A stretch of DNA of 24,538 nucleotides from Candidatus Fervidifonticultor secundus (lineage in GTDB: Bacteria; Sysuimicrobiota; Sysuimicrobiia; Sysuimicrobiales; Humicultoraceae): the NCBI GenBank assembly GCA_031459385.1, contig JAVKIP010000030.1:1-24538 (forward strand), given 5' to 3'. Below are positions 6,194 to 24,538 of the stretch, piece after piece. The stretch's first letter is position 1; every line of letters begins with the position of its first letter. The position numbers were made by a program, and so were the translations under genes. A model generated the notes under the pieces. The model saw nothing but the letters and a program-made list of their open reading frames with translations, had not been told where the DNA came from and did not search any database.

Positions 6194-6198
6194 CGCAT

Positions 6199-6903
6199 TC
6201 ACACCGCCAGGTGTCGGGCGATGAGCTCCTGGTCCTCCCAGATCGCGGCCATCGGGCCCTGGGCGACGATGGTGCCCTTCTCCATCACGTAGGCGCGATC
6301 GGCCACCTGGCGACAGAACCGCAGGTTCTGGTCGGCCAGCAAGATGGACACGCCCGTCTTGCGGATCTCCCGGAGGATCTCCGCCAGGCGCCGCACGACC
6401 AGCGGCGCCAGTCCTTCGGCGGGATCGTCCAGCAGGATCAGGTCAGGGTCGCGGATGAGCGCGCGGCCGATCGCGAGCATCTTCTGCTCGCCGCCGCTCA
6501 GGTGGTCACCCCGGCTGGCCCGCAGCCCGTGCAGGGTGGGGAAGAGGTCGTAGACTCGCTCCAGGGTCCAGCGGCCCCGGCCGCCGGACGCCAGGCGTGC
6601 GGCCAGGCGCAGGTGCTCCTCCACCGTGAGGTCCGGGAAGATCCGCCGGTCGTCGGGCACATAGCCGACCCCCAGCCGCGCGATCTCGTACGGCGCCAGC
6701 CCGGCGATCGCGCGACCGCGCAGGTGCACCTCGCCGGCCCGCGGCCGCACCAGCCCCATCAGCCCGCGGATCGTCGTGGTCTTCCCGGCGCCGTTGCGGC
6801 CCACCAGGCTGGCGATCTCGCCCTCGCCCACGTGGAACGAGATCCCGTGAACGACGACGCTGGCGCCGTAGCCGACCACCAGCCCCTCGACCTGCAGGAT
6901 CAC
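6199..6903 (-). CDS. livF: LIV/HAAT ABC importer ATP-binding subunit, LivF type (Walker B reads LLDDP)
   Basis: GRNGAGKTT, LSGGEQKM, LLDDPAEGLAP, ADQN switch, DRAYVMEKG; GTGA overlap with the LivG-type gene. Confidence 0.9.
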   Translation of the reverse strand: MILQVEGLVVGYGASVVVHGISFHVGEGEIASLVGRNGAGKTTTIRGLMGLVRPRAGEVHLRGRAIAGLAPYEIARLGVGYVPDDRRIFPDLTVEEHLRLAARLASGGRGRWTLERVYDLFPTLHGLRASRGDHLSGGEQKMLAIGRALIRDPDLILLDDPAEGLAPLVVRRLAEILREIRKTGVSILLADQNLRFCRQVADRAYVMEKGTIVAQGPMAAIWEDQELIARHLAV

Positions 6904-9552: not shown

Positions 9553-9563
9553 CTCACGGCCCG

Positions 9564-9586
9564 CGGGCGCGCATGCGTCGCGCCCG
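9564..9586 (-). other. Stem-loop directly downstream of the substrate-binding protein gene (mRNA stabiliser or partial terminator)
   Basis: CGGGCGCG-catgcgt-CGCGCCCG, perfect 8-bp stem. Such hairpins commonly follow SBP genes in ABC operons; function inferred. Confidence 0.45.
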
Positions 9587-9594
9587 GCCCGCCG

Positions 9595-10863
9595 CTACTT
9601 CGTCAGGTCCAGCCCCGTAAACGGCGGCCACCGGTAGTAGTCCTTCGGGTCGAACACCTTCAGCTCGCTGACGATCGGGATCGCATAGCGCGGATCGGCC
9701 ACCACGCGCCCCGCCGGCACCGCGTAGACGAACTGGTGGTCCTCGGCGCGGTACGTGCGCAGCCCCGCCGGCGTCTCGATCTGCATGCCCTTGAGGCCCT
9801 CCAGCACCCGGTCGGTCTGGATGCTGCGCGCCTTCTCCACGGCGGCCTTGGTGATGTGGATCGCCGAGTAGGTCACCTCGGCCGAGTAGTTGGGCATGCG
9901 GTTGAAGCGCCGCGCGAACCGGCTGACGAAGGCCCGGTTCATCTCGGTGTTGGGCCAGTTGTGGAGGTAACGGGCCGTGGCGTAGAGCTTGCCGCGGAAG
10001 CGGTTCTCCTTGACCTCCTCGCGGATCCCCTCGAGCACGTCGACCGAGCCGCCCATGGCCTGGAACCAGACCTGGATCCGGTCGAAGACGCCCTGCAGCA
10101 GCGCCTGGCGCAGCAGCGTCACGGCCTCGCCCGCCCACGGGGTCGCGATGATCGCGTCGGGGTTGCGCGCCATCACCGCCGAGATGTGCGCCGAGAAGTC
10201 CAAGGTCAAGAACGGCGCCCAGGCCGCCCCTACGAACTCGACGTCGGGGCGGAAGCGCCGCATCTGGTCCCGGAACAGCGCCCAGGTGGCGTAGCCGTAC
10301 TCGTAGTCGGCGCCGATGGTGGCCCAGCGCCGGATCTCCCGCCGGTCCCGGAAGAGGTGCGCGGCAACGGCGTCCTGGTAGACCGGCACGCTCACCCGGA
10401 CGATCTGCTTGATGCCGCGCTGCGCCACCAGCTCCTCGGTCAGCCGGTGGGTCGCGGCGTGGGTGAAGAACTGGATGCGGTCCAGTTCCTGCAGCACCGG
10501 CCCCAGCGCCATGGCCACGCCGCTGCTGTCGGTGCCGTAGAGGAAGTGGGCGCCGTACTCGGTGACCAGGAACCGCGCGTTCCGCACGCCGGTCGCCGGC
10601 CGGTTCTCGTCGTCCATGAAGCGCATCTCGAGCCGGCAGCCCAGGATGCCGCCGGCGGCGTTGATCTCCTCGATGGCCAGCGTCGCGCCCATTTCGATCT
10701 GCCGGCCGTAGTCGGCGTGGGGCCCCGAGGCCACGCCCTGGATGCCCAGCTTGAGGGCCGGGAGGTCAAGCTGACAGGCTGCGAGTGCCGCGCGGGTCCG
10801 GGGGGGGACCAACAGCACTGCAGCCACCACCATGCACAGCACCAGCAGCAGGCCCCTTCTCAT
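9595..10863 (-). CDS. LIV/HAAT ABC importer substrate-binding protein (type 1 periplasmic binding fold), Sec signal
   Basis: Hydrophobic signal peptide, GATLAIEEINAAGGILG, DYEYG, ETPAGLRTYRAEDHQ; AGGAGG SD upstream on the - strand; first gene of the liv-type operon. Ligand not determinable. Confidence 0.9.
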   Translation of the reverse strand: MRRGLLLVLCMVVAAVLLVPPRTRAALAACQLDLPALKLGIQGVASGPHADYGRQIEMGATLAIEEINAAGGILGCRLEMRFMDDENRPATGVRNARFLVTEYGAHFLYGTDSSGVAMALGPVLQELDRIQFFTHAATHRLTEELVAQRGIKQIVRVSVPVYQDAVAAHLFRDRREIRRWATIGADYEYGYATWALFRDQMRRFRPDVEFVGAAWAPFLTLDFSAHISAVMARNPDAIIATPWAGEAVTLLRQALLQGVFDRIQVWFQAMGGSVDVLEGIREEVKENRFRGKLYATARYLHNWPNTEMNRAFVSRFARRFNRMPNYSAEVTYSAIHITKAAVEKARSIQTDRVLEGLKGMQIETPAGLRTYRAEDHQFVYAVPAGRVVADPRYAIPIVSELKVFDPKDYYRWPPFTGLDLTK

Positions 10864-11043
10864 CCGCCACTCCCCCTCCTATACAGCTACAGCTGGCGCC
10901 GCAGTGCTGGTCGGCCACACGGCGGCACCGGCCAGGATGCGATCTGCGCAGCGCACACCTCACCATGTGCCGACGGCAGGGGATTCTCTGGTCCCCGGGC
11001 TCCTCTCCTGCCGGTTCGGTCGTAGGCAGGCCCGGGGTTCGGC

Positions 11044-11073
11044 TTGACACGGTGGGACAGGCTAGTGTAAATG
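11044..11073 (+). promoter_or_regulatory. Candidate sigma70-type promoter for the tetR-catabolic operon
   Basis: Perfect -35 TTGACA at 11044-11049; AT-rich but imperfect -10 candidates 17-18 nt downstream (GTAAAT/TAAATG, 11067-11073); lies in a locally AT-rich patch. Confidence 0.55.
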
Positions 11074-11074
11074 T

Positions 11075-11117
11075 CTAACGAACGATAGGTAGAAGTTGGC
11101 TACCGGTCGTTCGTTGG
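11075..11117. promoter_or_regulatory. Double operator: 18-bp inverted repeat, each arm containing a PaaR-like pseudopalindrome
   Basis: CTAACGAACGATAGGTAG (11075-11092) and the reverse complement of 11100-11117 (CCAACGAACGACCGGTAG) match at 15/18 with a 7-bp spacer; immediately downstream of the -10 and upstream of the TetR gene. Confidence 0.7.
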
Positions 11118-11130
11118 GGGACATCAGTCC

Positions 11131-11817
11131 GTGGAGTTCAGGGTGGCCGTTCCCGTGAAGGAACCCCGGGGTGACACGCGGCAGCGGCTGCTCACTGTGG
11201 CCGCGCACCTGTTTCGCACCAAGGGGTACGCAGCGACCAGTACCCGCGAGATCGCCCGGCACCTGCGGATACAGACGGCTTCGCTCTACCACTATATTCG
11301 CAGCAAGGACCAGCTGCTGTTTGAGATTGCGCGGCAGGGGCTCGAGGAACTGGAGGCAGAGGTCCGCCCCATCGTCTTCTCCGCGCTGCCACCCCTGGAG
11401 AAACTGCGCCGGTTCATCGAGACTCACGTGACGATCATCCTGCGCTACCGCGACAAGCACGCGGTCATGCTGGCGGAACTCAACGCCCTCCCGGCTAGGT
11501 CCCGGCGGGCGGTCGTCGCACTGCGGGACCGGTACGAAGGCCTGGTCGCGCGGGTGCTGGAAGAGGGGCAGGCGGCCGGGGTGGTCCGCGCCGACCTCCC
11601 GGTGCGGTATCTGCGACTGGCCCTTCTGAATCTCCTCAACTGGTCCATCTTCTGGTTTCGGCCGGACGGCCCGCTGGCCCCTGACGAGGTGGGCCGTATG
11701 CTGTCCAGCGTGTTCATCGACGGTGTGGCCGTCGGTGCCTCTCGGCCGGGAGGAGGAGGAGGACTGCGGGGAAGGGCTGCCCGGGGCAGTGACGGGACGC
11801 CTGCCCCGGGCGGGTGA
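11131..11817 (+). CDS. TetR/AcrR-family transcriptional repressor, PaaR/KstR2-like
   Basis: HTH AAHLFRTKGYAATSTREIARHLRIQTASLYHYIRSKDQLL; C-terminal RDRYEGLVARVLEEG...LLNWSIFWFRPDGPL typical of the PaaR/KstR2 subgroup. Start uncertain (GTG 11131, 11143 or 11155). Confidence 0.9.
   Translation: MEFRVAVPVKEPRGDTRQRLLTVAAHLFRTKGYAATSTREIARHLRIQTASLYHYIRSKDQLLFEIARQGLEELEAEVRPIVFSALPPLEKLRRFIETHVTIILRYRDKHAVMLAELNALPARSRRAVVALRDRYEGLVARVLEEGQAAGVVRADLPVRYLRLALLNLLNWSIFWFRPDGPLAPDEVGRMLSSVFIDGVAVGASRPGGGGGLRGRAARGSDGTPAPGG
11779..11811 (+). other. Perfect 11-bp stem hairpin inside the low-complexity 3' tail of tetR
   Basis: GCCCGGGGCAG-N11-CTGCCCCGGGC. Confidence 0.4.
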
Positions 11818-11826
11818 GCCAACACA

Positions 11827-11855
11827 GTCACACTGCCGGCCAGGCCGGCTGTGAC
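11827..11855 (+). other. Intergenic hairpin between tetR and the M24 gene
   Basis: GTCACA-ct-GCCGGC-cag-GCCGGC-TGTGAC, a 12-bp stem with a 2-nt bulge. Confidence 0.4.
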
Positions 11856-11886
11856 CGGTGCACACGGAGGCGGGAGGTGGACACAA

Positions 11887-13212
11887 GTGGTTGAGCTAAA
11901 ACCGCACACGTCGAGTATCGAGTTCGAGTGGCCAATGGTGGCGTTGCCCGTGCGCCAGTACGCCACGTCCACGATGAACTGGGGCAGCTACACCGTGGAC
12001 CTGACGCGGATGCGGACGCACCGGTTGCGCCGTATCAAAGAGCAGCTCCAGCGGGCTGAGATCGGTGCCATTCTGACCATCAACGAGTGGAACATCCAGT
12101 ACCTGACCGCTACCACGGTGCCGTACTGGACGACGCCTGGCTCCGGCCTGCGGTACGCCCTGTATTGCACCACGCTGAACGAAGCCATCATGTACGAGCA
12201 AGGGGATATCGGCTATCATACCCGGACATCCTGTCCCTGGTTGCACAAGGTCAAGGTGGCTATGACCGGCGCCGGGTGGATCGGGCGCACCATGGGTCCC
12301 AATTACTTCCGGGTCCAGACCGACAAGTTGGTGCAGCAGGTGATGCTCGATATGCGGGATGCGGGGCTGCACCCGCAACGGGACGTGCTGGCGCTGGACA
12401 CCTACGACCCGGTGCTGATCGAGGCGTTCCAACGGGCGGGCGTCAAGGTTAACCCTGAAGGCGGCCAGCTGATGCTGGAGGCGCGCAAGATCAAGAACCA
12501 GGACGAAGTGGAGTGCATCCGCGTCGCGTGCGCTATCGGCGACGCCATGTTCGAGGCCTTGCGGGATAATCTGCGGCCCGGGGTGCGGGAGAGTGAGCTG
12601 GTGGGGGTCATGCACAAACGGTGCTATGAGCTGGGCGGGCGCATCTACTCCGGTGTGTTCGTCACCTCGGGACCGGTAGCGTGGCCGAATCCGCGCGACG
12701 AGAGCGATCGCATCATCCAGCCCGGCGATGTGGTCTATTCCGACGTCTACAACACGTCGTTCATGGGCTACAAGATCTGCTACTACCGCACGTTCAGCTG
12801 TGGGAGGGCGTCGCGGGAGGCCCGGGACGACTACGCCACCGCGCTGGAGTGGTTGTACAAAGCCATCGACAGGATCAAGCCCGGCGTGACCACCCGGGAG
12901 CTGGCGGAACAGTGGCCGCCGGGCCCCGAGGTGTGGAAGGACATCCATGTCTACTACGAAGACCAGACAGCGGGGAACAACTGGGGCCACGGCATCGGCC
13001 TGACGCTCTACGAGCCGCCGATCATCTGGCGGGAGGCGTCCCTGAACGATCCGGTCCCCATCGAGGAAGGCATGGTGTTCGCCGTCGAGACACAGCACGG
13101 GCGGCCAGGGAAACACGGGGTACGCATCGAGGAGATGGTGCGCGTGACCAGCACCGGTGCGGAAGTCCTGAGCCGGTGGCCGGTGCAGGAGGTCATGGAG
13201 GTGGCGGTGTAA
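11887..13212 (+). CDS. M24-family (Xaa-Pro peptidase/creatinase fold) enzyme with atypical active site, 441 aa
   Basis: Creatinase-like N-domain, ARKIKNQDEVECIR, PGVRESE, DRIIQPGDVVYSD, GYKICYYRTF, IKPGVT, GHGIGL, EGMVFAVE, GVRIEEMVRVT. Start re-called to GTG 11887 behind GGAGGTGG. Confidence 0.88.
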   Translation: MVELKPHTSSIEFEWPMVALPVRQYATSTMNWGSYTVDLTRMRTHRLRRIKEQLQRAEIGAILTINEWNIQYLTATTVPYWTTPGSGLRYALYCTTLNEAIMYEQGDIGYHTRTSCPWLHKVKVAMTGAGWIGRTMGPNYFRVQTDKLVQQVMLDMRDAGLHPQRDVLALDTYDPVLIEAFQRAGVKVNPEGGQLMLEARKIKNQDEVECIRVACAIGDAMFEALRDNLRPGVRESELVGVMHKRCYELGGRIYSGVFVTSGPVAWPNPRDESDRIIQPGDVVYSDVYNTSFMGYKICYYRTFSCGRASREARDDYATALEWLYKAIDRIKPGVTTRELAEQWPPGPEVWKDIHVYYEDQTAGNNWGHGIGLTLYEPPIIWREASLNDPVPIEEGMVFAVETQHGRPGKHGVRIEEMVRVTSTGAEVLSRWPVQEVMEVAV

Positions 13213-13266
13213 ACGTTGGTGCGCCGGGGCCGGAGGCTGTGGGCTTCGGGCAGGCGCGGTGGCGGG

Positions 13267-14133
13267 ATGAAGCCGGCGGCGTTCGAGTATCTTCAGCCAA
13301 CCACGCGGGCAGAAGTGCTGGAGGTCCTCCACCAGTTCTCGGCATCTGCCAAGGTGCTGGCGGGCGGGCAGAGTCTGGTTCCGCTGATGAACCTGCGGCT
13401 CGCACGGCCTGCCGTCGTGGTGGACATCAACCGGATCGGCGACTTGGCGTACCTGAGGCGCGAGGACGGCGCGCTCGTTCTCGGGGCGCTGGTTCGCCAC
13501 CGGCAGCTTGAGCGTGATCCGGCGGTGGGTAGTGCGTGCCCCATCCTGCAGGAAGCCGCGCGGCACATCGGGTACCCGGCGGTCCGCAACCGCGGTACTG
13601 TGGGCGGGAGTGTGGCCCATGCCGACCCGGCTGCGGAGCTCCCGTGTGTCCTGCTGGCCGCCGGCGCGACCGTGGTGGTGGAGTCGCGCAGCGGTCGACG
13701 GGCGATTCCCATCGATCGGTTCTTCGTCGGGCCTTACACCACCCAGTTGCGGGCCGACGAACTCCTGGTGGAAGTGCGGGTCCCGGCCGTGGAGCCGGAC
13801 GACGCCTGGGGCTTCGCCGAGTTCGCGCGCCACGACGGGGGATTTGCCCTGGCGCTGGCGGCGTGTGTGATGCGGCGCGACCCGGAGGGGCGGGTGGAGA
13901 CGGCGCGGGTGGCCGTGGGCGGCGTGACCGCGACGCCCGAACGCTTGGTGGGCGCCGAAGAGACCCTGCGGGGGCAGCGACTCACGGACGGTACGATCGA
14001 TCGCGCGGCGGAGCACGCAGCGGCGCTGGCGGCCCATGACGACATTCACGCCACGGCCACCTACCGCCGGCGCTTGGCCCGGTGGCTGGTCCGGGAGGTG
14101 CTCCGCCGCGCGGCGGGGTCCCGGGCCGCATGA
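13267..14133 (+). CDS. Xanthine dehydrogenase-family FAD-binding (medium, CoxM/CutM-like) subunit, 288 aa
   Basis: MKPAAFEY start, KVLAGGQSLVPLMNLRLARP, AVRNRGTVGGSVAHADPAAE, DDIHATATYRR. Confidence 0.93.
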   Translation: MKPAAFEYLQPTTRAEVLEVLHQFSASAKVLAGGQSLVPLMNLRLARPAVVVDINRIGDLAYLRREDGALVLGALVRHRQLERDPAVGSACPILQEAARHIGYPAVRNRGTVGGSVAHADPAAELPCVLLAAGATVVVESRSGRRAIPIDRFFVGPYTTQLRADELLVEVRVPAVEPDDAWGFAEFARHDGGFALALAACVMRRDPEGRVETARVAVGGVTATPERLVGAEETLRGQRLTDGTIDRAAEHAAALAAHDDIHATATYRRRLARWLVREVLRRAAGSRAA

Positions 14134-14630
14134 GCACCGTATCCATCGCCTTCCGCGTGAACGGCATCGACCACCGCCTGTCCATAGAGCCCAGGCGGCT
14201 GCTGGCGGACGTGCTGCGGCACGATCTGGGGCTCACCGGAACCCACGTGGGGTGCGAACAGGGCGTGTGCGGAGCCTGTACCGTGCTGCTGGATGGAGAG
14301 CTGGTACGCGCCTGCCTGCTGTTCGCCGTCCAGGCTGATGGGTGCGAGGTGACCACCATCGAAGGCCTGAGCACGGCGGGCGCGCTGCATCCGATCCAGC
14401 AGGCGTTTATCGAAGAGTTCGGGTTCCAGTGCGGATTCTGCACCCCCGGCATGATCCTGGCCGCCTACCGACTGCTCCGGGAGGTGGCGCGGCCCACGCC
14501 GGACGAGATCCGGCGTGGACTGTCTGGGCACCTCTGCCGCTGCACGGGGTACGCAGACATCGTCCAATCGGTCCAGCGGGCATCGGCGCTGGTGCAGGCA
14601 GCGAGCGAAGGAGCCCACCGTGGGCGGTGA
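14130..14630 (+). CDS. Xanthine dehydrogenase-family 2x[2Fe-2S] (small, CoxS/CutS-like) subunit, 166 aa
   Basis: GCEQGVCGACTV...C and QCGFCTPG...LCRCTGY motifs; ATGA overlap with the FAD subunit. Confidence 0.95.
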   Translation: MSTVSIAFRVNGIDHRLSIEPRRLLADVLRHDLGLTGTHVGCEQGVCGACTVLLDGELVRACLLFAVQADGCEVTTIEGLSTAGALHPIQQAFIEEFGFQCGFCTPGMILAAYRLLREVARPTPDEIRRGLSGHLCRCTGYADIVQSVQRASALVQAASEGAHRGR

Positions 14631-16974
14631 CGACCGCACGGGATCGTACGTGGGTCACCGGATCGCCCGGTGGAGTGACCGCCGCTTCGTGGAGGGCCGC
14701 GCGCGATATCTCGACGACCTGTCGATGCCGGGACAGGCGGAGGTGGCGTTCGTGCGGAGCCTTTACGGCCACGCCCGGCTGCGGCGCGTCGACGTCAGCG
14801 CGGCGCGCCGGCACCCCGACGCCCTCGGCGTGTACTGCTGGGAGGACCTGCAGGCGCTGCTCACCCCGTTCTGGACCATGCCGCGGGGGCCGATTCGCCG
14901 GGCCGCGGTGACGCCGCTGGCCAGCGACAAGGTCCGGTGGGTGGGGGAGCCGGTGGCGGTGGTTGTGGCGCAGGACCGGTACCGGGCCGAGGACGTGGCT
15001 GAGCTGGTGGAGGTGGACTACGAGCCCCTGCCTGCGGTGGTCGACACCCTGGCAGCGATGCAGCCCGACAGCCCTCGGCTGTACGACCAGTGGCCTGACA
15101 ATGTGGTGCTGCACCAGACCTTTCAGGCGGGCGATCCGGATGCGCTGCTGGGGCAGGCGCCGGTGGTGGTGCGCAAGCGGTTCCGGAGCAACCGGCACAC
15201 CGCCGTGCCCCTGGAGGGGCGCGGGATCCTGGCTGCCTGGGATCCCCTCGAGGAGACCCTGACAGTCTGGATCGGGCATCAGGACGTCCACCTGGTCCGG
15301 GCGGTGCTGGCAGACGTGCTCCAGGTCCCCCTGGGGCGGATCCGCGTCGTCAGTCCGGACGTGGGTGGCGCGTTCGGCATCAAGCTGCCGGTCTATCCCG
15401 AAGAAATGGTGGTTTGCGCCCTGAGCCGCCTGCTCCGCCGGCCTGTGAAGTGGGTGCAGGATCGACGGGAGAGCCTGCTGGGGGACACCCACGCGCGGGA
15501 GGCGGTGGTCGACGTCGAGGCGGCCTTCAGCCGCGAGGGGCGGCTCCAGGCGGTGCGCGCGCACATCGTGAGCGACGCTGGCGCCTACGCGGTGGCGGGG
15601 CGCGGCCCCACCATCGAGGGCACCATGCTGGCGCGGGAGCTTCCCGGGCCGTACGAGCTGCAGCACTACGCGTACACGCTGGACGTGGTCATGACCAACA
15701 AGGCGCCGGTGGCCGTGTACCGCGGCGTCGCCATTCCGGTGAGTACCTTTGTCATGGAACGTGTGATGGACTTCGCAGCCGACGCCCTGGGGCTGGACCC
15801 CGTGGATATCCGGCGGCGTAACCTGATCCGGACGTTCCCCTATACCACCGTCACCGGCCACATCTACGACGACGGGCAGTACCTGGCATCGCTGGAGCAG
15901 GCCGTGGCACTCAGCGACTACCACCGGTGGCGCCAGGAGCAGGCCGAACTCCGGGCACAGGGGCGGTACATCGGCATCGGTGTGTGCTGTCTTGTGGATG
16001 CTACGGCCCGAGGAGGCGGGTTTTACGGCCGGCTGGGTCTGAAAGCGGCTACCCAGGAGGGCTGCATCCTCCGCATCGACCCCACCGGCGGGATCACCGC
16101 CGCGTTCGGGACCACCACCCAGGGGCAGGGGTTGCACACGGCCCTGGCGCAGGTCGTGGCCACGGCGCTCGGCGTGCCCCTGGATCGGGTAGACGTGGTC
16201 ATGGGAGATACGGCCACCACGCCCTACGGCGGCGGGGCATGGGCCAGTCGCGGTGCCGTCGCCGGTGGGACCGTGGCCCTGCTGGCCGCGCGGAGCCTAC
16301 GCGAGAAGGTGCAGCGGATCGCCGCACACCTCCTGGAGGCCCGCCCCGAGGACGTCGAGCTGGCAGACGGGAGGGTCTACGTCCGCGGGGCGCCCGGGCG
16401 CTCGCTGACCCTGGCGGAGGTGGCGCATACGGCCTACTTCGTGGCTGCCGACCTTCCACCGGGCACGGAGCCGGGGCTGGAGGTCATGGTCCACTGGGAG
16501 CCGGAGATTCCGGCCACATTTGCCCACGCGACGCAAGTCATGGTGGTGGAGGTTCACCCCGCCACCGGCGCCGTCACCATCCTGCGGTACTTGGTGGTGG
16601 AAGACTGCGGACGCATCATCAACCCGGGTCTCGTGGACGGCCAGCTCCGCGGCGGGATCGTCCAGGGGCTCGGAGGGGCGATGTACGAAGAGATCGTATA
16701 CGATGCCCACGCGCAGCCCCTGACGACCACACTCATGGACTACGTGCTGCCTGGCATCTGGGAAGCCCCCGAGGTGGAGATCCACCACCTAGAGACGCCG
16801 TCGACCCGCAACCCCGGAGGCTTTCGTGGGATGGCCGAGTCGGGGACGGCAGGGGTCCCTGCCGTGCTGGCCGGCGCGGTAGCCGACGCCCTGAAGCCCT
16901 GGGGGGTGGAGATTACCGAGCTCCCCCTGAGCCCGGCCCGGCTGGGGGATGGACTGGGAGACCGTGCGCGCTGA
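14620..16974 (+). CDS. Xanthine dehydrogenase-family molybdopterin-binding (large, CoxL/CutL-like) subunit, 784 aa
   Basis: RFVEGRARYLDD, VPLEGRG, DVGGAFGIK, active-site loop VYRGVAI, QGQGLHT, EDCGRIINP...GQLRGG, RGMAESG (catalytic Glu). GTG 14620 behind AAGGAG, overlapping the small subunit by 11 nt. Confidence 0.93.
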   Translation: MGGDDRTGSYVGHRIARWSDRRFVEGRARYLDDLSMPGQAEVAFVRSLYGHARLRRVDVSAARRHPDALGVYCWEDLQALLTPFWTMPRGPIRRAAVTPLASDKVRWVGEPVAVVVAQDRYRAEDVAELVEVDYEPLPAVVDTLAAMQPDSPRLYDQWPDNVVLHQTFQAGDPDALLGQAPVVVRKRFRSNRHTAVPLEGRGILAAWDPLEETLTVWIGHQDVHLVRAVLADVLQVPLGRIRVVSPDVGGAFGIKLPVYPEEMVVCALSRLLRRPVKWVQDRRESLLGDTHAREAVVDVEAAFSREGRLQAVRAHIVSDAGAYAVAGRGPTIEGTMLARELPGPYELQHYAYTLDVVMTNKAPVAVYRGVAIPVSTFVMERVMDFAADALGLDPVDIRRRNLIRTFPYTTVTGHIYDDGQYLASLEQAVALSDYHRWRQEQAELRAQGRYIGIGVCCLVDATARGGGFYGRLGLKAATQEGCILRIDPTGGITAAFGTTTQGQGLHTALAQVVATALGVPLDRVDVVMGDTATTPYGGGAWASRGAVAGGTVALLAARSLREKVQRIAAHLLEARPEDVELADGRVYVRGAPGRSLTLAEVAHTAYFVAADLPPGTEPGLEVMVHWEPEIPATFAHATQVMVVEVHPATGAVTILRYLVVEDCGRIINPGLVDGQLRGGIVQGLGGAMYEEIVYDAHAQPLTTTLMDYVLPGIWEAPEVEIHHLETPSTRNPGGFRGMAESGTAGVPAVLAGAVADALKPWGVEITELPLSPARLGDGLGDRAR

Positions 16975-17018
16975 ACGTGCAGCGTACACAAACAGCCACA
17001 GCACAGGGGGTGGTGGGA

Positions 17019-18248
17019 ATGGGTGGGATGACGCGGCGGAAGTTCCTGGCGAGCGCGGCGGCGGGTGGCGCCGCCCTGGTGGTTCCCGACGTCCTGCGGG
17101 CCGCGGTGTACGCTGCCCCGCGGGAGCCGATCCGCGTCGGGTTCCCGGCACCCCTGACGGGGGCATTCGCCGACGAGGCCAACTACATGGTGCAGGGCGC
17201 GACCCTGGCCGTGGAGGAGTTCAACCGCGCAGGCGGCGTCCTCGGGCGCCCCGTGGAGCTGCTGGTGCGGGACGACCGGTTGAGCCCAGACGAAGGTGCC
17301 CGCCGCACGCTGGAGCTCATTGAGCGCGAGCGTGTGCACTTCCTCGCCGGCGTCCTGTCGGCGGCAGTGCAGCTGGCAGTCAACGAGCAGGCCAAGCGGC
17401 ACCGGAAGATCTTCGTCTCCACCAGCCAGTCGGACAAGATCGTGATGCCGCCTGACTTCGGCCCGTGGACGTTCCACGAGGCGCTGACCCCGACCATGAC
17501 GTCCACGGCCCTGGCCCAGTACGTCCTGCGAGAAGGGCGCGGCCGGCGGGTCTACATTCTCTATGCCGACTACGCGTACGGGCAGGAGCACACGGCGGCG
17601 TGGCGGCGGGTCGTATCCGCGACGGGCGCGGCGCTGGCCGGCGTCGACCCCCATCCCCTGGGCACCACGGACTACTCCGCCTACTTCCCCAAGATCGTGG
17701 CAGCGCGGGCGGACCTGCTGGTGCTGAACAACTTCGGGCGGGACATCGTGAACTCGGCCAAGCAGGCCGTGGAGCTGGGGCTCAAGCGGCGGATGCAGCT
17801 GGCCGTGCCCATCATTCCCACCTCGGCCGCCTTGGAAGCCGGACCGGAGGTGCTGGAAGACGTGCTGTGCGCGTCCAGTTTCTGGTGGGAGGTCCAGGAC
17901 CGGATCCCCAAGGCCAAGGAGTTCAATACCAAGTTCAGCCAGCGGTTCAACCGGGTACCGTCCGACTACGCCGCCTACGGCTACAGCGGCGTGCGCGAGC
18001 TGCTGGAAGCCGCCGAGCGCGCGCGGAGCACGGAGAGTGACGCGGTGGCCAAGGCTTTGGAGGGACGGCGCTACGCGCACTACAAGGACGGGCAGTACTG
18101 GCGCCAGTGCGACCACCAGTCGATCCAGTCCATCTTCCTGCTGAAGGGGCGCGGCGTCCCCAGGGGGTCGTACGGGCTGTTTGACGTGGTGGCGACGGTG
18201 GACGGGGAGCGCGTGACCCCCAGCTGCGAAGCGCTCGGTCACCGCTGA
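17019..18248 (+). CDS. LIV/HAAT ABC importer substrate-binding protein with twin-arginine (Tat) signal, about 409 aa
   Basis: MTRRKFLASAAAGGAALV fits S/T-R-R-x-F-L; GATLAVEEFNRAGGVLGRPVELLVRDD, ADYAYG, WRQCDHQ. Start ATG 17019 or 17028. Confidence 0.9.
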   Translation: MGGMTRRKFLASAAAGGAALVVPDVLRAAVYAAPREPIRVGFPAPLTGAFADEANYMVQGATLAVEEFNRAGGVLGRPVELLVRDDRLSPDEGARRTLELIERERVHFLAGVLSAAVQLAVNEQAKRHRKIFVSTSQSDKIVMPPDFGPWTFHEALTPTMTSTALAQYVLREGRGRRVYILYADYAYGQEHTAAWRRVVSATGAALAGVDPHPLGTTDYSAYFPKIVAARADLLVLNNFGRDIVNSAKQAVELGLKRRMQLAVPIIPTSAALEAGPEVLEDVLCASSFWWEVQDRIPKAKEFNTKFSQRFNRVPSDYAAYGYSGVRELLEAAERARSTESDAVAKALEGRRYAHYKDGQYWRQCDHQSIQSIFLLKGRGVPRGSYGLFDVVATVDGERVTPSCEALGHR

Positions 18249-18287
18249 CCTCGTGCCGTGGTCGTGAACCTCGTGCTGCGGTCATGA
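18248..18287 (+). repeat. Imperfect 20-bp tandem duplication filling the SBP-permease spacer
   Basis: ACCTCGTGCCGTGGTCGTGA (18248-18267) and ACCTCGTGCTGCGGTCATGA (18268-18287), 17/20 identical; the second copy contains the livH-type ATG. Confidence 0.75.
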
Positions 18288-19147
18288 GTGTCGAAGGGCT
18301 GCTGCTCCAGCTCATGACCGGCATCGTCGTGGGCGCCATTTGGGTCATCGTCGCCCTGGGCCTATCACTGATCTTCGGGATCCTGCGCATCGTTAACTTC
18401 GCCCACGGCGCCTTCTACATGCTGGGGGCCTACCTGGCCGCCTTGGCGGTGGGCTGGACGGGCAGTTTCTGGATGGCCCTCCTCCTGGCGCCGGCAGCCA
18501 TGGCGGCCTTCGGCCTGGTGGCGCAGTCCGGGCTGATCCGTCCCCTGTACCAGCGGGGGCTCGTCTACAGCGTGCTGATCACGTACGCCGTCTCCCTGGT
18601 GATCATCGAAGGCGTGAAGATGCTGTGGGGGACGGTAGGGCCACAGTACCGCATCCCGCGGGAGCTGGCCGGAATGGTCACGCTGGGGTTTGTCGTTTTC
18701 CCCAAATATCGGCTGTTCGTGCTGGCGGCGACGGGACTGACGGTGCTGGGGCTGTGGTGGCTACTGCACCGCACCTCCACCGGGCTGTTCATCCGTGCGG
18801 CGAGCCAGGATCCGCTGATGACGCAGGCGCTGGGGGTCGACATCTCCCGGGTCCTGGCCGTGGCTTTTGCCCTGGGCGTGGCCCTGGCAGGCCTCGGGGG
18901 AGCTCTAGCAGGCCCTCTCCGGGGGGTCTTTCCGGAGATGGGGCTGGACATCTTGGTCGAGTCGTTCGTGGTAGTGGTCATCGGCGGCATGGGGAGCCTG
19001 ACCGGTGCCGCAGTGGCCGGGTTACTGGTGGGGATCGTCCAGAGTTTTACGTTCCTGTGGGCTCCGTTGTTTGCCCATGTGGTGCTGTTCCTGTTGATGA
19101 TCGCCACCCTGTTGGTGCGGCCGCACGGCCTCCTGGGGACGGAGTGA
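18284..19147 (+). CDS. livH: LIV/HAAT ABC importer permease, LivH type
   Basis: ALGLSLIFGILRIVNFAHGAFYMLGAY, RTSTGLFIRA, FVVVVIGGMGS, LLVRPHGLLG. Confidence 0.92.
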   Translation: MSVEGLLLQLMTGIVVGAIWVIVALGLSLIFGILRIVNFAHGAFYMLGAYLAALAVGWTGSFWMALLLAPAAMAAFGLVAQSGLIRPLYQRGLVYSVLITYAVSLVIIEGVKMLWGTVGPQYRIPRELAGMVTLGFVVFPKYRLFVLAATGLTVLGLWWLLHRTSTGLFIRAASQDPLMTQALGVDISRVLAVAFALGVALAGLGGALAGPLRGVFPEMGLDILVESFVVVVIGGMGSLTGAAVAGLLVGIVQSFTFLWAPLFAHVVLFLLMIATLLVRPHGLLGTE

Positions 19148-19150
19148 CCG

Positions 19151-20166
19151 ATGCGCGCAGAGCTGGAGGCACGGTGGGATCTGAGCGTCCGGCGGAAGTG
19201 GCGCCAGGGAGCCCTGGCCACTGTGACGCTGCTGGCCCTGCTCCTGGCCCTGCCCCTGGCGTTGCCGTACGAAGCCCTGGCCACGCAGGTGCTGGTCTAC
19301 GCCCTTTTCAGCCTGGGCTACAACCTGCTGTTCGGCTACACGGGGCTGTTGTCGTTTGGGCATGCTGCCTTTTTCGGACTAGGAAGCTACAGCGCGGCGC
19401 TACTGGCGCGGCACGTCACGGCCAACGTCGCCCTGACCCTGCCGGCGGCTGTGCTCGTGGCCGCCGCCATGGGTGCCGTCATCGGGTTCTTCTGCCTGCG
19501 CCGCCGGGGCGACTACTTCTCGCTGATGACGCTGGCGTTCGGGCAGTTGCTGTACTTCGTCGCCCACCAGTGGCGCACGGTTACCGGCGGCGACGACGGC
19601 CTGCGGGGTATTCCGCTGCCCTCGGTGGCCATCGGCGGGTGGGCGGTCGACCTTACGACCTCCGTGGCCACCTACGCCTTGGTGGCCGTCCTGACGTTCG
19701 CCGCCTTCCTGGCGTTCCGGCGGCTGCTGGCGTCCCCCTTCGGTACCGCCCTGCAAGCCATTCGCGAGAACGAGCTGCGGGCGGAAGCCGTGGGCTACGA
19801 CACGTTCCGCCTGAAGCTGTGGGCATTCGTGCTCTCGGCTGGCATGAGCGGCGCTGCCGGCGCCCTGAACGTCTACCTCTTGAAGTTCGTCGGCCTCAAC
19901 AGTTTGCACTGGATCACCTCAGGCTACGTGGTGCTCATCACCATCCTCGGCGGTACAGGAACTCTCTACGGCCCCCTGGTGGGCGCGCTGGCCTTCGTCG
20001 GGCTGCAGGACGCCCTCAGTGGCGTCCCCGCCATCATGGATCGGTGGCCGTTCTTCGTCGGCCTGTTGTTCATTCTGTGCGTGTGGACCTTCCCGGAAGG
20101 CATTTGGGGAACCGCCCAGCGGGTCTACGCCCGCCTGCGCATCGCAAGCCCGGCGGGAGGCGAGCC

Positions 20167-20170
<4 letters not shown>
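19151..20170 (+). CDS. livM: LIV/HAAT ABC importer permease, LivM type
   Basis: GYNLLFGYTGLLSFGHAAFFG, YFSLMTLAF, TGGDDGL, SPFGTALQAIRENE, LGGTGTLYGP, PEGIWG. Confidence 0.92.
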
Positions 20171-20915
<745 letters not shown>

Positions 20916-20919
<4 letters not shown>

Positions 20920-21638
20920 CCGGCGAGATCCTGGTGCTCGAGGACCTGCACACCTACTACGGGAAGAGCCACGTGCTTCAGGGGGTCTCCTTCGGAGTCG
21001 GCAGAGGAGAGTTCGTGGCGCTGGTGGGCCGGAACGGCGTGGGGAAATCGACGATTCTCAAAACCGTCATGGGGGTGACGCCGCCCCGGGCCGGCCGGGT
21101 CCTGCTGGAGGGGCGGGAGATCACCGGCAGGCCACCCCATGAGGTATCGCGGGCAGGCATCGCCTGGGTGCCCGAAGACCGGCGGGTGTTGCCCCACCTG
21201 ACCGTGCTGGAGAACCTCCAGATCTCGCTGCACGGTGCGGGGGTGGGGCGGCACGAGGGGCAGGAGCGGTTGCAGGATGCGTTCGCGCTGTTCCCGCAGC
21301 TGCGGGAACGCCAGCACCAGAAGGGGCGGACGCTATCGGGCGGCGAGCAGCAGATGCTGGCCCTGGCCAGGGCCCTGGTGGTGCGCCCGAAGATCATGCT
21401 GGTCGACGAACCGACGCAGGGGTTGATGCCCAAGCTCGTGGCGGCCCTGGTGCAGGTGCTGTGCGAAATCCACTCGCGGGGAGTGACTGTCGTCCTGGTC
21501 GAGCAGATGGTGACAGTGGCGCTGGAGCTGGCCCGACGCATATACGTCATCGACCACGGGGTCGTCCGCCTGTCTACTACGCCTGACGGCATCCGGCAGG
21601 ATCCCGGCCTGATGCAGGCGCTCTTGGGCGTGTCGTAG
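20916..21638 (+). CDS. livF: LIV/HAAT ABC importer ATP-binding subunit, LivF type, 240 aa
   Basis: YYGKSHVL, GRNGVGKST, WVPEDRR, LSGGEQQML, LVDEPTQGL, VEQ; GTGA overlap at 20916-20919. Confidence 0.92.
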
Positions 21639-21647
21639 GAGGGACCG

Positions 21648-22412
21648 ATGGGACTCGCAGATACGGACTATCAGGATCACGTGGTGGTCGAGCTGCTGGG
21701 GAAACGGGTGCACGTGCTGGACCTCTCGCGCGAGATCGGGCCGGGCATCCCCGTCTACCCCGGGCACATGCGCGTGGCCACGTGGTGGCACCTGACCCAT
21801 GAAGACGTGAGGCGCTTGCGCCTGCCGCCCGACTCACCGTTCGGGGGGTATGGCGTGTTCGGCATTGCCATGTGCGACCACGTTTCCACCCACCTTGACG
21901 CGGTGTTCCACTTTGACGCCCGTCGGGCAGAGAAGTCCATCGACCGGGTGCCGCTAACGCAGCTCATCACCCCCGGGGTGTGGATCGACGTGAGCTGGGT
22001 GCCGCCGCGGCAGCATATCCGGCTGGCGGACGTGCAACGGGCGCTCCAGGAGGCGGGCACCCGCCTGCGGCCCGGGGTGACGTTGCTGTACCACACGGGC
22101 GCCGCGCGGTACTGGCGCGAGCCCTATCGCTTCCTCACGGAGTACCCCGGTCTCGACGAAGAAGCCAGTCGGTGGATTCTCGACCACGGCGTCGTGAACG
22201 TGTGCACCGATGCTCCTAGCACGGACAACCCTGCGGACCTCACCTATCCCAACCACAGGCTCCACGGAGAGCGCCAGGTGATCCACACGGAGATCGTGAA
22301 CAACATCGACAGGATTCCGCGCCACGACGGCTTCTACGTCATGTGCCTGCCTCTTCGTTTCGTGGGCCTGTCGGGCTCTCCGGTGCGGGCGCTGGCGCTG
22401 TGGGAGGAGTAG
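21648..22412 (+). CDS. Cyclase-family metal-dependent hydrolase (kynurenine formamidase/isatin hydrolase-like)
   Basis: DLS...PVYPG, HVSTHLDAVFH (variant of HxGTHxDxPxH), YPGL, TDAPSTD, H...E, GSPVRALA; AGGAGG SD. Confidence 0.88.
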   Translation: MGLADTDYQDHVVVELLGKRVHVLDLSREIGPGIPVYPGHMRVATWWHLTHEDVRRLRLPPDSPFGGYGVFGIAMCDHVSTHLDAVFHFDARRAEKSIDRVPLTQLITPGVWIDVSWVPPRQHIRLADVQRALQEAGTRLRPGVTLLYHTGAARYWREPYRFLTEYPGLDEEASRWILDHGVVNVCTDAPSTDNPADLTYPNHRLHGERQVIHTEIVNNIDRIPRHDGFYVMCLPLRFVGLSGSPVRALALWEE

Positions 22413-22454
22413 CCGGGCGGGCGCAGTGAGGACGACACGTTGGGGGTGATGCGC

Positions 22455-22640
22455 ATGCCGCTCATTCGGGTCACGTCTTTTCCGCAGGAGAAGGAGGCAC
22501 GCGCCGAGCTGGCTCAAGCCATCACTGACGTCGTGCATCGGGTGACGAAGATCCCCCGGGAAAGCATCTGGGTCATCTTCGAGCCCGTGCCCCATGAGAA
22601 CTGGTCGGTGGGAGGCGTCTTGGTATCGGAGAGACGGTAG
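22455..22640 (+). CDS. Tautomerase-superfamily protein (4-oxalocrotonate tautomerase-like, beta-alpha-beta), 61 aa
   Basis: Start re-called to ATG 22455 giving M-P-L-I (catalytic Pro-1); ELAQAITDVV...IWVIFE...ENWSVGG pattern and size match the family. Confidence 0.85.
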   Translation: MPLIRVTSFPQEKEARAELAQAITDVVHRVTKIPRESIWVIFEPVPHENWSVGGVLVSERR

Positions 22641-22651
22641 TCGGACCGCGT

Positions 22652-23416
22652 GTGGGCGGGCAGCGGTTCTCCCTGGCGGATCGGACGGCCCTGGTCACCG
22701 GCGGCAGCCGTGGCCTCGGCGAGGCCATCGCCGTGGGGCTGGCCGAGGCCGGGGCGGACGTGGCGGTGGCCGCGCGCAGCCGACCGGACCTGGAGCGCGT
22801 CGCGTCCCGCATCGGTGCCTGTGGCCGCCGTGCGGCTGTGGTGGAGGCGGACGTCACCCGGGTGGAGGACGCGCGGCGGATGGTGGAAGAGACCGAGGCG
22901 GCTTTGGGCCCGCTGCACATCCTGGTGAACAACGCGGGCGTCAACATTCCGCGCCTGGCGGTGGAGGTCACGGAAGAAGAGTGGGACCGGGTGGTGGACA
23001 CGAACCTGAAAGGTGTCTTCTTCTGCGCCCAGGCAGCGGGCCGGCGCATGGTCCAGCGGCGCTACGGCCGGATCGTGAACGTCGCGTCGCAGATGGGCCT
23101 GGTGGGCTTCTACTTCCGCGCGGCGTACTGCGCCAGCAAGGCGGGCGTGGTGAATCTGACCCGGGTCCTGGCGGTGGAATGGGCGCCACACGGCGTGACG
23201 GTGAACGCGGTGGCACCCACGTTTGTCGAGACGCCCATGACCCGCGAGATGCTGCAGGACCCGTGGTTTCGCGACGAGGTGTTTCGCCGGATCCCGGCAG
23301 GGCGGCTGGCTGACGCCCAGGATGTGGTCAGCGCCGTCGTCTACCTAGCGTCCGATGCGGCAACAATGGTGACAGGCCACACGCTACTGGTCGACGGCGG
23401 CTGGGTGGCATGGTAG
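22652..23416 (+). CDS. Classical SDR oxidoreductase, gluconate 5-dehydrogenase/KduD/HpsO-like, probably NADP(H)
   Basis: TGGSRGLG, AARS (basic residues, no Asp), NNAG, S...YCASK, VAPTFVETP, VTGHTLLVDGGW. Confidence 0.9.
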   Translation: MGGQRFSLADRTALVTGGSRGLGEAIAVGLAEAGADVAVAARSRPDLERVASRIGACGRRAAVVEADVTRVEDARRMVEETEAALGPLHILVNNAGVNIPRLAVEVTEEEWDRVVDTNLKGVFFCAQAAGRRMVQRRYGRIVNVASQMGLVGFYFRAAYCASKAGVVNLTRVLAVEWAPHGVTVNAVAPTFVETPMTREMLQDPWFRDEVFRRIPAGRLADAQDVVSAVVYLASDAATMVTGHTLLVDGGWVAW

Positions 23417-23433
23417 CAGGGAAGGAGGCCGAG

Positions 23434-24538
23434 GTGCGGGAGTACCTCAAGCGCGCGTCGCCCCAGCCCGCAGTAGACCGGCGGGCGGTGGAGGAGACGG
23501 TGCGTGGCATTCTGGAACATGTGCGCCGCGAGGGAGATGCGGCGGTGCGGGAGTACTCGCGCCGTTACGACCGCTGGGATCCACCCCGGTTCCGGGTGAT
23601 GCCCGATGAGGTGGAGCGGGCACGGCAGGCGTTGCCGCCGGCTCTCATAGACGACATCGCCTTCACCGCCCACCAGGTCCGTGAGTTCGCGCGCTGTCAA
23701 CTCGACACGCTCCGCCCGCTGGAGGTAGAGATGCGACCCGGTGTGGTCCTCGGACACCGGCACATCCCCGTGGCATCGGTGGGGTGCTACGTGCCCGGAG
23801 GCCGGTACCCGCTGATCGCCTCGGCGCTGATGAGCATCGCGACGCCCAAGGTGGCAGGGGTGGAACGCGTGGTGGCGTGCGCGCCTCCCCGCGGGGAGGG
23901 AATCTACCCGGCGACGCTGGTGGCGATGGCGGTCGCGGGCGCGGATGAGATCTACTGCCTGGGCGGCGTGCAGGCGCTGGCGGCCATGGCGTACGGCACC
24001 GCGGAGATCTCGCCGGTGGACATGATCGTGGGGCCGGGCAACCAGTACGTCGTGGAGGCCAAACGGCAGCTGTTCGGCGTGGTCGGGGTGGACCTGCTGG
24101 CGGGCCCCACGGAGATCCTGGTTATCGCTGACCACACGGCCGATCCGCACGTGGTGGCGGCAGACCTCCTGGGCCAGGCGGAGCACGATCCGGCCTCCCC
24201 TGCGGTACTGGTAACCACCAGCCGGGAGCTGGGGACGCGGGTGCTGGCCGAAATCGCGCAGCTGTTGCCCACTCTGCCCACGGCCGAGGTGATCGGGATC
24301 AGCTGGCGCGACCGGGGGGAGGTCGTTGTGGTCGATTCAGACGACGAGGCAGCAGCCGTCGCCGACGAGTACGCTCCCGAGCACCTAGAGGTGCAGACCC
24401 GCAACCCCGACTGGTACCTGCAGCGGCTCCGCAACTACGGCACGCTGTTTCTCGGCGAAGAGTCGACGGTCGTTTACTCCGACAAGGCTGTCGGGACCAA
24501 TCACATCTTACCCACCGGGCGGGCCGCGCGGTTCACCG
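23434..24538 (+). CDS. Histidinol dehydrogenase (HisD)-family protein, HpsN-like paralogue; 3'-truncated by the window end
   Basis: Not in the ORF track; translated by eye from GTG 23434 (AAGGAGG at 23422-23428): MREYLKRAS...GCYVPGGRYPLIAS...GGVQALAAMAYG...GPGNQYVVEAK...AGPTE...GQAEH...APEHL...SDKAVGTNHILPTG; open to the last base. Confidence 0.92.
   Translation, partial: MREYLKRASPQPAVDRRAVEETVRGILEHVRREGDAAVREYSRRYDRWDPPRFRVMPDEVERARQALPPALIDDIAFTAHQVREFARCQLDTLRPLEVEMRPGVVLGHRHIPVASVGCYVPGGRYPLIASALMSIATPKVAGVERVVACAPPRGEGIYPATLVAMAVAGADEIYCLGGVQALAAMAYGTAEISPVDMIVGPGNQYVVEAKRQLFGVVGVDLLAGPTEILVIADHTADPHVVAADLLGQAEHDPASPAVLVTTSRELGTRVLAEIAQLLPTLPTAEVIGISWRDRGEVVVVDSDDEAAAVADEYAPEHLEVQTRNPDWYLQRLRNYGTLFLGEESTVVYSDKAVGTNHILPTGRAARFT

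Follow-up and report, generated by a model that had tools for sequence, protein, structure and literature searches.

A candidate non-peptidase metalloenzyme of a cysteine-type, DddP-like M24 clade in a probable catabolic island of Candidatus Fervidifonticultor secundus

Contig JAVKIP010000030.1 of Candidatus Fervidifonticultor secundus (assembly GCA_031459385.1), whose 24,538 nucleotides were analysed at full length and are called the window below, carries at positions 11887-13212 a gene for a 441-residue protein of the M24 family. M24 is known for a textbook fixed D-D-H-E-E dimetal site, which has been re-used for a few non-peptidase reactions; the known non-peptidases include creatinase, the ectoine hydrolase DoeA and DddP. 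On the basis of its sequence, predicted fold and gene neighbourhood, the protein is proposed to be an active non-peptidase metalloenzyme of a cysteine-type (Cys-type), DddP-like M24 clade that cleaves an imported small solute, a proposal to which we assign a probability of roughly 0.6. Activity is argued from the retained metal ligands, the invariant pocket and the operon setting, and a peptidase function is argued against by the absence of one ligand Asp and of the histidines, by an architecture of the DddP type and by scores below the peptidase cut-offs.

Metal-site residues, fold and the Cys-type clade

The gene and the residues in question, all on the + strand, are as follows.
11887..13212, +, gene of the 441-residue Cys-type DddP-like M24 protein (P0001), identified by its stop-free translation, PF00557, an AlphaFold2 (AF2) model and Foldseek
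12682..12696, +, WPNPR, residues 266-270, with P269 where prolidase and aminopeptidase P (APP) have the substrate-binding His (HMMER alignment)
12742..12744, +, GAC, D286, the first ligand Asp, retained (HMMER alignment to prolidases, codon check, 120/120 alignment rows)
12778..12786, +, C298-Y299-Y300, the C-x-Y signature, with Cys at the bridging-Asp position and Tyr300 as its co-varying partner (alignments, MAFFT columns, codon check)
12988..13014, +, H368-G-I-G-L-T-L-Y375-E376, with the ligand His kept and Tyr375 at the position of the peptidase His and of DddP Asp377 (alignments, codon check)
13087..13131, +, E401 (GAG 13087) to E415 (GAG 13129), both ligand Glu kept (codon check, 120/120 rows)

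The open reading frame (ORF) starts with GTG at 11887, with GGAGG-type purine runs 5' of this start and a second open GTG upstream at 11851, and ends with TAA at 13210-13212. PF00557 (Peptidase_M24) is the sole Pfam domain of the protein (residues 209-421, 120.7 bits against a cut-off of 23). In pairwise HMMER alignments with solved prolidases, the ligand positions are occupied by D286, H368 (CAC 12988), E401 and E415, C298 (TGC 12778-12780) lies under the second ligand Asp of 'GYnsDmtRT', P269 lies under the His of 'kPH', and Y375 (TAC 13009) lies under the His of 'GLEVHE'. The protein has D286, C298, H368, E401 and E415 in place of the five-ligand M24B set D-D-H-E-E, and P269 and Y375 in place of the two M24B peptidase histidines, namely the substrate-binding His of 'PH' and the proton-shuttle His of 'HE'. 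A first-pass annotation made from the sequence alone had described the Asp-to-Cys change, the missing histidines and the D, H, E and E ligands, and each of its codons and alignment positions was confirmed. The register that equates C298 with the second Asp follows from the unambiguous prolidase alignment, from the span between D and R-T, which is 17 residues in both the query protein and DddP, and from 18 Asp-type relatives, in which an Asp stands in the same MAFFT column with the identical spacing GY-x-x-D-x-x-R-T.

The AF2 model, built from 33 sequences, has a mean pLDDT of 89.2 and a pTM of 0.88. When it was compared with the Protein Data Bank (PDB) by Foldseek, the top four matches were the DddP structures 4S01, 4S00, 4RZY and 4B28 (TM 0.76-0.77 over 410-416 columns, 20-21% identity), followed by prolidases (TMq 0.65-0.68) and by creatinases and DoeA (0.67-0.69); there were 238 PDB fold matches at E≤0.001, and every match listed is an M24-fold protein. 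In sequence searches of the PDB and NCBIfam, too, DddP alone was matched over the full length (residues 35-436), and a creatinase was matched at E 5e-13 with a profile. The protein falls below the NCBIfam cut-offs for PepQ (68.6 vs 630), PRK09795 (70.2 vs 393), PepP (33.8 vs 465) and YpdF, for the two DoeA models (36.7 vs 575 and 34 vs 613), and for the DddP equivalog NF043017 (91.6 bits vs 600). Orthology with dimethylsulfoniopropionate (DMSP) lyase was ruled out by this missed DddP cut-off together with four unmatched DddP-specific residues.

Of 8000 candidates scored in a word-indexed search, 3535 proteins reached E≤1e-5, and the top 120 of these are 51-100% identical to the query. Alignment of the query with 119 homologues (51-78% identity; the identical protein P0002 was excluded) gave 120 rows, in all of which D286, C298, H368, E401, E415, Y375, E376, W266, P267, R270, Y300, R301 and T302 are present; P269 is kept in 85 of the 120 aligned rows. 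Because Cys298 occurs in every row, it is not a product of chance or sequencing error. In a set of 33 diverse sequences the remaining ligands are invariant, as are about 80 other positions.

The wider distribution was surveyed by an exhaustive phmmer search of 1.84 billion cluster representatives: 8923 matched at E≤1e-3, of which 2289 reached E≤1e-10 and 162 reached E≤1e-30. From the best 150 of the 8923 matches, which are representatives at 50% identity, 84 proteins of 380-480 residues were combined with five members of the query's group, fragments and longer proteins being excluded; position 298 in the resulting 89 full-length rows is Cys in 68, Asp in 18 and another residue in three. A FastTree phylogeny of these rows and the genome's nearer paralogue was rooted on four prolidase-like paralogues of the same genome, a root that is only approximate because long outgroup branches were flagged. 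One clade of 69 rows, comprising 66 Cys rows and the three rows with other residues, has a local support of 96; the Asp-type rows are basal, three stray Cys rows lie among them, and at least four state changes are required. The clade comprises at least 66 clusters at 50% identity from Rokubacteria, Thermodesulfobacteriota, Nitrospinota, Proteobacteria, Actinomycetota and haloarchaea. No NCBIfam model covers it: DddP was the top match for 10 of 10 members tested, all below its cut-off, and the DddP model scores 237-403 bits for the three rows nearest true DddP and 75-112 bits for the other tested rows (cut-off 600). Source names of clade members are generic, automatic Xaa-Pro aminopeptidase or dipeptidase labels, and the ESM Atlas yields only generic 'aminopeptidase P family' clusters; a search of mostly non-subscription literature, supplements excluded, found neither a functional study of the clade nor a characterised member. 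Judged by sequence comparison, Cys298 is the mark of a large uncharacterised clade that arose inside the DddP-like M24 branch, not a peculiarity of one gene.

A column-by-column comparison of the Cys and Asp rows identified a partner residue. Position 300 is Tyr in 93% of the Cys rows and in none (0%) of the Asp rows: Cys and Tyr300 occur together in 63 of the 89 rows, neither occurs in 21, Cys occurs without Tyr300 in five, and Tyr300 never occurs without Cys. Other columns with differing group-majority states (each at least 60%) lie only within an insertion around residues 354-358. Among seven independent tree pairs that differ in Cys, Tyr differs in the same way in five, in the opposite way in none and not at all in two. 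The first ligand Asp, D286, is kept in 58 of the 68 Cys rows, and eight of the 10 rows without it carry Cys288, which defines a further element.
Residues 286 and 288, Cys-clade sub-branch without the first ligand Asp and with a second Cys at 288, represented by P0129, P0132, P0140, P0143, P0147, P0175, P0192 and P0225
Position 288 is that of the sixth ligand of DddP, Asp297, as given in PMC4108388. Such exchange of Asp and Cys among ligand positions would be the pattern expected of a metal site. At position 375, the rows with D-C-H-x-E-E have Tyr (23), His (10) or Trp (9), and SPHPH occupies 266-270 in some other Cys-type branches. The two histidines have thus been lost in the query's sub-branch, not throughout the Cys clade.

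The catabolic operon, its genome and related loci

The M24 gene is the first enzyme gene of a TetR-headed operon, in which the following features were recognised.
10864..24538, no strand, strain-specific segment from the TetR gene to the HisD-like gene, absent at the syntenic site of a same-genus genome and lower in G+C
11077..11115, no strand, 16-nt inverted repeat (11077-11092 / 11100-11115), 88% complementary with a 7-nt spacer, upstream of the TetR gene; candidate operator
11131..11817, +, TetR-family regulator, first gene of the cluster (PF00440 + PF17932)
13216..14133, +, FAD subunit (CoxM-like) of a molybdenum (Mo) hydroxylase (PF00941 + PF03450)
14130..14630, +, [2Fe-2S] subunit (CoxS-like; PF01799 + PF00111)
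14620..16974, +, molybdopterin subunit (CoxL-like); nearest solved chains are CoxL and the quinoline 2-oxidoreductase large subunit
17019..18248, +, HAAT-type (Peripla_BP_6) substrate-binding protein (domain search)
18284..19147, +, LivH-like permease (domain search)
19151..20170, +, LivM-like permease (domain search)
~20170-20919 and ~20920-21638, +, two ATP-binding cassette (ABC) ATPases in different frames (frame analysis of third-position G+C, GC3; Walker A at 20281 and 21027)
21648..22412, +, cyclase-family (PF04199) metal hydrolase; nearest solved are isatin hydrolase (46.9 bits) and kynurenine formamidase
22652..23416, +, short-chain dehydrogenase/reductase (SDR) (domain search)
23410..24537, +, HisD-family four-electron alcohol dehydrogenase, closer to HpsN than to HisD, running off the contig end

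The cluster genes abut or overlap: CoxM starts 3 nt past the M24 stop, and the CoxS ATG at 14130 overlaps the CoxM stop. A perfect TTGACA is located at 11044-11049, 5' of the inverted repeat; a consensus promoter/terminator scan of 10800-13300 gave no site, and none between the TetR, M24 and CoxM genes. The mechanical ORF list merges genes at 18625-20919 and 20019-21638, and its 539-residue ORF from 20019 is a composite.

The CoxL-like subunit scores 535 bits to a CoxL and 532 bits to quinoline 2-oxidoreductase, followed by 6-hydroxypseudooxynicotine dehydrogenase. The active-site loop of form I and form II CO dehydrogenases is AYxCSFR and AYRGAGR, respectively; an AY[RG] motif was sought in the large subunit and none was found, and a CO dehydrogenase was ruled out for the CoxLMS genes by the missing AYR loop. 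The Mo enzyme probably hydroxylates N-heterocycles or aldehydes. Scores of the HisD-like protein are 365.7 bits against HpsN and 266.3 against the best histidinol dehydrogenase. According to PMC11382572, HpsN has the motif G-R-Y-A/S-H, whose His126 binds the sulfonate, and HisD reads G-S-A-P-L. The window protein reads GRYPL, and G-R/K-Y-P-L/M/C is found in five homologues encoded next to other Cys-type M24 genes, so that this protein may represent a third substrate class in its family.

The window is one entire contig of 24.5 kb; the assembly comprises 3.3 Mb in 59 contigs and is 97.6% complete with 5.5% contamination. Positions 62-10781 are collinear with a same-genus genome at 81-86% identity, by which a mis-binned contig was ruled out; from 10864 onward that genome gave no match except paralogue-level hits, and its DNA adjoining the syntenic block matches the end of another contig of the source genome (C59) at 83-91% identity, to which the window contig (C24) is probably joined. 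G+C is 73.3% in the left part and 68.5% in the right part of the window, and most GC3 values change from 0.91-0.97 to 0.81-0.91. Searches of 40 relatives, from genus to order, found no orthologue of the window M24 gene; 20 of the 40 have a match at E≤1e-60, all 36-39% identical, which is the level of the genome's second Cys-type paralogue. The whole cluster, from the TetR gene through to the HisD-like one, was probably acquired horizontally as a catabolic island. To its left, positions 2-6168 encode an SDR, a MaoC dehydratase and a MacAB/HlyD/outer-membrane-factor efflux set, and a second HAAT ABC importer is encoded on the minus strand at 6199-10863; both regions are conserved in the same-genus genome.

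The source genome is unusually rich in this family, with twelve M24 matches in 3.3 Mb, three of them within 45 kb on contig C1. Other paralogues (L003, L005 and L006) carry the full D-D-H-E-E set and the 'HE' His. A second Cys-type gene (C1:389687-391066; L089:6688-8067, minus) encodes a protein 37% identical to the query, with GYRTCYYRT, SPHPH and Trp375; it separates the E1-beta gene from the E2 gene in a 2-oxoacid-dehydrogenase-like operon, which also contains GntR-FCD, HIBADH-like, EamA, Amidohydro_2 and amine oxidase genes, and its orthologues occur in the 20 matching relatives mentioned above.

The surroundings of related genes were scanned in one genome per species, which gave 149 confirmed relatives and 80 retained loci (L087 and L088 lie on the same contig), all from metagenome-assembled or single-cell genomes of Rokubacteria, Thermodesulfobacteriota/Deltaproteobacteria, Nitrospinota, Alpha- and Betaproteobacteria, Tectomicrobia and others. 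By tblastn with the window proteins (at least 50% coverage, E≤1e-10), matches to LivH were found in 33 loci, LivM in 32, the SDR in 32, the binding protein in 26 (17 at 44-51% identity), the cyclase in 13, CoxS and CoxL in seven each, and CoxM and the HisD-like protein in six each. Clustering of 1077 crude ORF calls from 79 loci and the window (at least 35% identity, 70% coverage; the window is counted where it is a member, and the simple, greedy ORF caller is unreliable in high-G+C loci) placed ABC ATPases in 30 loci, LivM in 27, SDRs in 26, LivH in 25, the binding protein in 15, AMP-ligases in 13, LysR in 12, and ACAD and GntR-FCD in 11 each. Smaller families were the cyclase (nine plus four loci), MBL-fold lactonase-like proteins (eight plus five), HpaB/AbfD-like proteins (seven), and ComB-like, HisD-like and CoxL proteins (six each). 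In the gene maps the M24 gene typically adjoins an ABC (Liv-type) or TRAP importer, and its partners also include aldehyde:ferredoxin oxidoreductase, Fe-ADH, oxoprolinase-type, creatininase, CoA-dependent beta-oxidation, Mo hydroxylase and lactonase-like genes. The Cys clade probably acts on several substrates, since the partner sets are mixed across its sub-branches. At four alpha- and beta-proteobacterial loci (L047, L058, L059 and L061) the M24 gene is accompanied by two proteins of about 275 and 307 residues that matched nothing in Pfam or NCBIfam; three of these loci also encode a small Zn-ribbon protein between the M24 gene and this pair, and PrpD-like and SDR genes are near in three of the four.

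Proposed reaction and alternative explanations

In the proposed enzyme, Cys298, probably aided by the hydroxy group of Tyr300, would take over the role of the bridging carboxylate, which would give a thiolate-containing, mono- or dinuclear site with a Zn/Fe-type Lewis acid in a homodimer resembling those of DddP and creatinase. The substrate may be a small polar solute delivered by the adjacent HAAT ABC importer, in which one carbon-heteroatom bond would be broken, and the Mo hydroxylase, the SDR, the HpsN-like alcohol-to-acid dehydrogenase and the isatin-hydrolase-like cyclase could process the substrate or its products. For the chemistry itself, hydrolysis of a C-N bond (amide, amidine or lactam ring) comes somewhat short of even odds as the leading candidate; it is favoured because of the creatinase and DoeA precedents, the amino-acid/amide/urea type of the importer, the N-heterocycle type of the Mo hydroxylase and the other C-N hydrolases encoded nearby. 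DddP-style beta-elimination is a weaker candidate, and other chemistry takes the remaining odds.

The first-pass annotation had regarded the protein as probably not a peptidase, and comparison now speaks for that judgement through the DddP-type fold, the missed cut-offs, the lost Asp and His residues and the importer and catabolic neighbours. Among the PepP/PepQ, EutD, creatinase and DddP types that it named for structural comparison, DddP resembles the model most closely (TM 0.77), and the CYYRT motif it pointed out belongs to a large Cys-type clade in which the tree survey and literature revealed no characterised member. Its idea of new chemistry at a thiolate-ligated dimetal site is plausible, with indirect support from the eight Cys-type rows that carry Cys288 in the absence of D286. 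Its suggestion that the first enzyme gene of the operon may encode a committed or ring-opening step is consistent with the order of the genes and with a Mo hydroxylase and an isatin-hydrolase-like cyclase as neighbours. Beyond these points, the alignments show that the Cys is a hallmark of the clade, that it is paired with Tyr300, and that it is uncoupled from the loss of the two histidines.

Several points weigh against a non-peptidase metalloenzyme of this kind. The role of Cys298 as a ligand, rather than as a nucleophile or a structural residue, is something that we infer. The HMMER alignment to DddP is ambiguous around C298, because its path pairs 'ykiC' with 'ygiC' of DddP by means of two compensating 2-residue gaps near that residue. 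The clade depends on a FastTree phylogeny of 50%-identity representatives with a distant-paralogue root and flagged long branches, and the co-variation of Cys and Tyr reflects few independent events, so that it is suggestive (sign test p ~0.06). The neighbourhoods vary widely, being aromatic-acid-like, CoA-dependent, lactonase-type or oxoprolinase-type, and the context names no single substrate. Finally, four of the five ligands and the R-T of 'TRT' are still peptidase-like, and residual peptidase activity may persist.

The last point leads to the view that the protein is still a peptidase or dipeptidase of the Xaa-Pro type, with a metal site in which Cys can stand in for Asp. The retention of R301-T302 and E376 beside the four ligands and the automatic public family names (Xaa-Pro aminopeptidase or dipeptidase) agree with this view, which we nevertheless consider improbable: the protein lacks both peptidase histidines and has a DddP-type N-terminal domain, the scores are far under the PepQ, PepP and YpdF cut-offs, the three paralogues with the complete ligand set and 'HE' His are encoded in the same genome, and the gene belongs to a catabolic operon rather than a housekeeping context. 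Eukaryotic M24 proteins such as Ebp1/PA2G4 and Spt16 are non-catalytic, and the loss of one canonical ligand and both histidines could likewise indicate a binding or scaffold protein. This is barely credible here, as the remaining ligands and the roughly 80 invariant positions of the 33 diverse sequences, a pocket conserved in 120 of 120 rows, and the translational packing of the gene with enzymes and an importer all speak for catalysis.

A DddP-like beta-elimination lyase is the more serious alternative, although still unlikely. In such an enzyme the carboxylate of a C3-C4 acid would bind the metal, a base would take the alpha-proton, and a leaving group such as a sulfonium, ammonium, sulfonate or hydroxyl would depart, the alcohol, aldehyde or acid products going to the neighbouring dehydrogenases. 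DddP has the closest fold and is the only characterised relative in the surrounding tree, the HisD-like neighbour favours the sulfopropanediol 3-dehydrogenase HpsN over HisD (365.7 vs 266.3 bits), genes of the ComB-like (2-phosphosulfolactate phosphatase) family follow the M24 gene in six related loci, and other loci contain sets of CoA-ligase, ACAD and ECH genes. Against a lyase of this type, however, Asp297, Asp307, Tyr366 and Asp377 of DddP are replaced by Tyr288, Cys298, Ala362 and Tyr375, and the NCBIfam DddP model gives only 91.6 of the required 600 bits. The sulfonate-binding His of HpsN, as described in PMC11382572, is absent from the HisD-like neighbour and from its five co-located homologues, and no sulfite-handling gene lies within the window. 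For these last two reasons, a 2,3-dihydroxypropane-1-sulfonate (DHPS)/sulfolactate pathway with the M24 protein as a new desulfonating lyase, an idea prompted by the HpsN-like neighbour and the ComB-like genes, was reduced to a minority rival.

A further and distinctly doubtful idea is that Cys298 and Tyr300, beside the His/Glu/Glu/Asp metal site, form a cofactor new to the pita-bread fold. This could be a thiolate-plus-phenolate iron or zinc centre or a covalently cross-linked Cys-Tyr pair, as occurs in galactose oxidase, cysteine dioxygenase and cysteamine dioxygenase, in the last of which the two residues are also at i and i+2. If so, the chemistry would be new to M24, possibly a redox or radical-assisted C-S or C-N cleavage, for which we know of no M24 enzyme.

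The sequence comparison shows a whole clade in which the M24 bridging carboxylate has been swapped for a Cys-x-Tyr pair and whose members have been recruited into many different catabolic operons. Discovery of the reaction would correct thousands of annotations, add a new type of metal site to the fold, and probably reveal one or more unrecognised routes by which soil, aquifer and sediment microbes break down small polar compounds or N-heterocycles.

Comparison with known M24 enzymes

The DddP proteins (4RZY, 4S00 and 4S01 from Ruegeria lacuscaerulensis, 4B28 from Roseobacter denitrificans; NF043017) share with the query the two-domain fold (rmsd 3.1 over 410-412 columns), the DddP-type N-terminal domain, the 12-residue spacing between the first and second ligand positions, the ligand His, both Glu, the Pro of the 'xPW' loop, and a place in the same tree radiation. 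PMC4108388 describes a six-residue binuclear iron site that includes Asp297. Four of the six residues are kept in the query, in which Tyr288 stands for Asp297 and Cys298 for the bridging Asp307. Two further DddP residues, Asp377 and Tyr366, are named as mutated in the titles of 4S01 and 4S00 and correspond to Tyr375 and Ala362 of the query; they reportedly have catalytic roles, according to a 2015 structural paper. The query also differs from DddP in being only about 21% identical and in having one extra residue between GL and E, and its family is found in groundwater, soil and sediment lineages.

The similarity to prolidases and APP (5CDL, 3Q6D, 1PV9 and 1A16) is confined in sequence to the C-terminal pita-bread domain, which aligns over residues ~200-430 (E 2e-21) with D286, H368, E401, E415, the 'GY' before and the 'RT' after the second ligand in common; the Cys in place of the second ligand Asp and the absence of both His set the query apart, and the N-terminal domain is not alignable by sequence. 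Creatinase and DoeA/EutD (1CHM, 7YTO and 6TWK) have a similar two-domain fold with weaker sequence matches than DddP and are precedents within the fold for the C-N hydrolysis of small zwitterions. Creatinase has a metal-free active site with a catalytic His and a Creatinase_N domain; PF01321 was not hit in the query and is carried by four of the 120 listed homologues, and the retained ligands of the query argue for a metal site. Outside M24, thiolate-ligated metal sites in hydrolytic enzymes and lyases are found in peptide deformylase and LuxS, and sorbitol dehydrogenase has a Cys-His-Glu zinc site.

A cultured organism also has a Cys-type member. HVO_RS04235 (WP_013035071.1), encoded on pHV4 of Haloferax volcanii DS2 and annotated as 'M24 family metallopeptidase', is 39% identical to the query and keeps D, C-Y-Y-R-T, H, Y, E and E; a literature search by its accessions found no paper. 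Its neighbours on pHV4 (524676-549947) include hydantoinase/oxoprolinase A and B, an Nramp transporter, two EthD genes, a cupin, an HD protein, a ThDP enzyme and PaaK. This neighbourhood is catabolic like that of the query, without the Mo hydroxylase, and the Haloferax protein offers a genetically tractable system for the clade.

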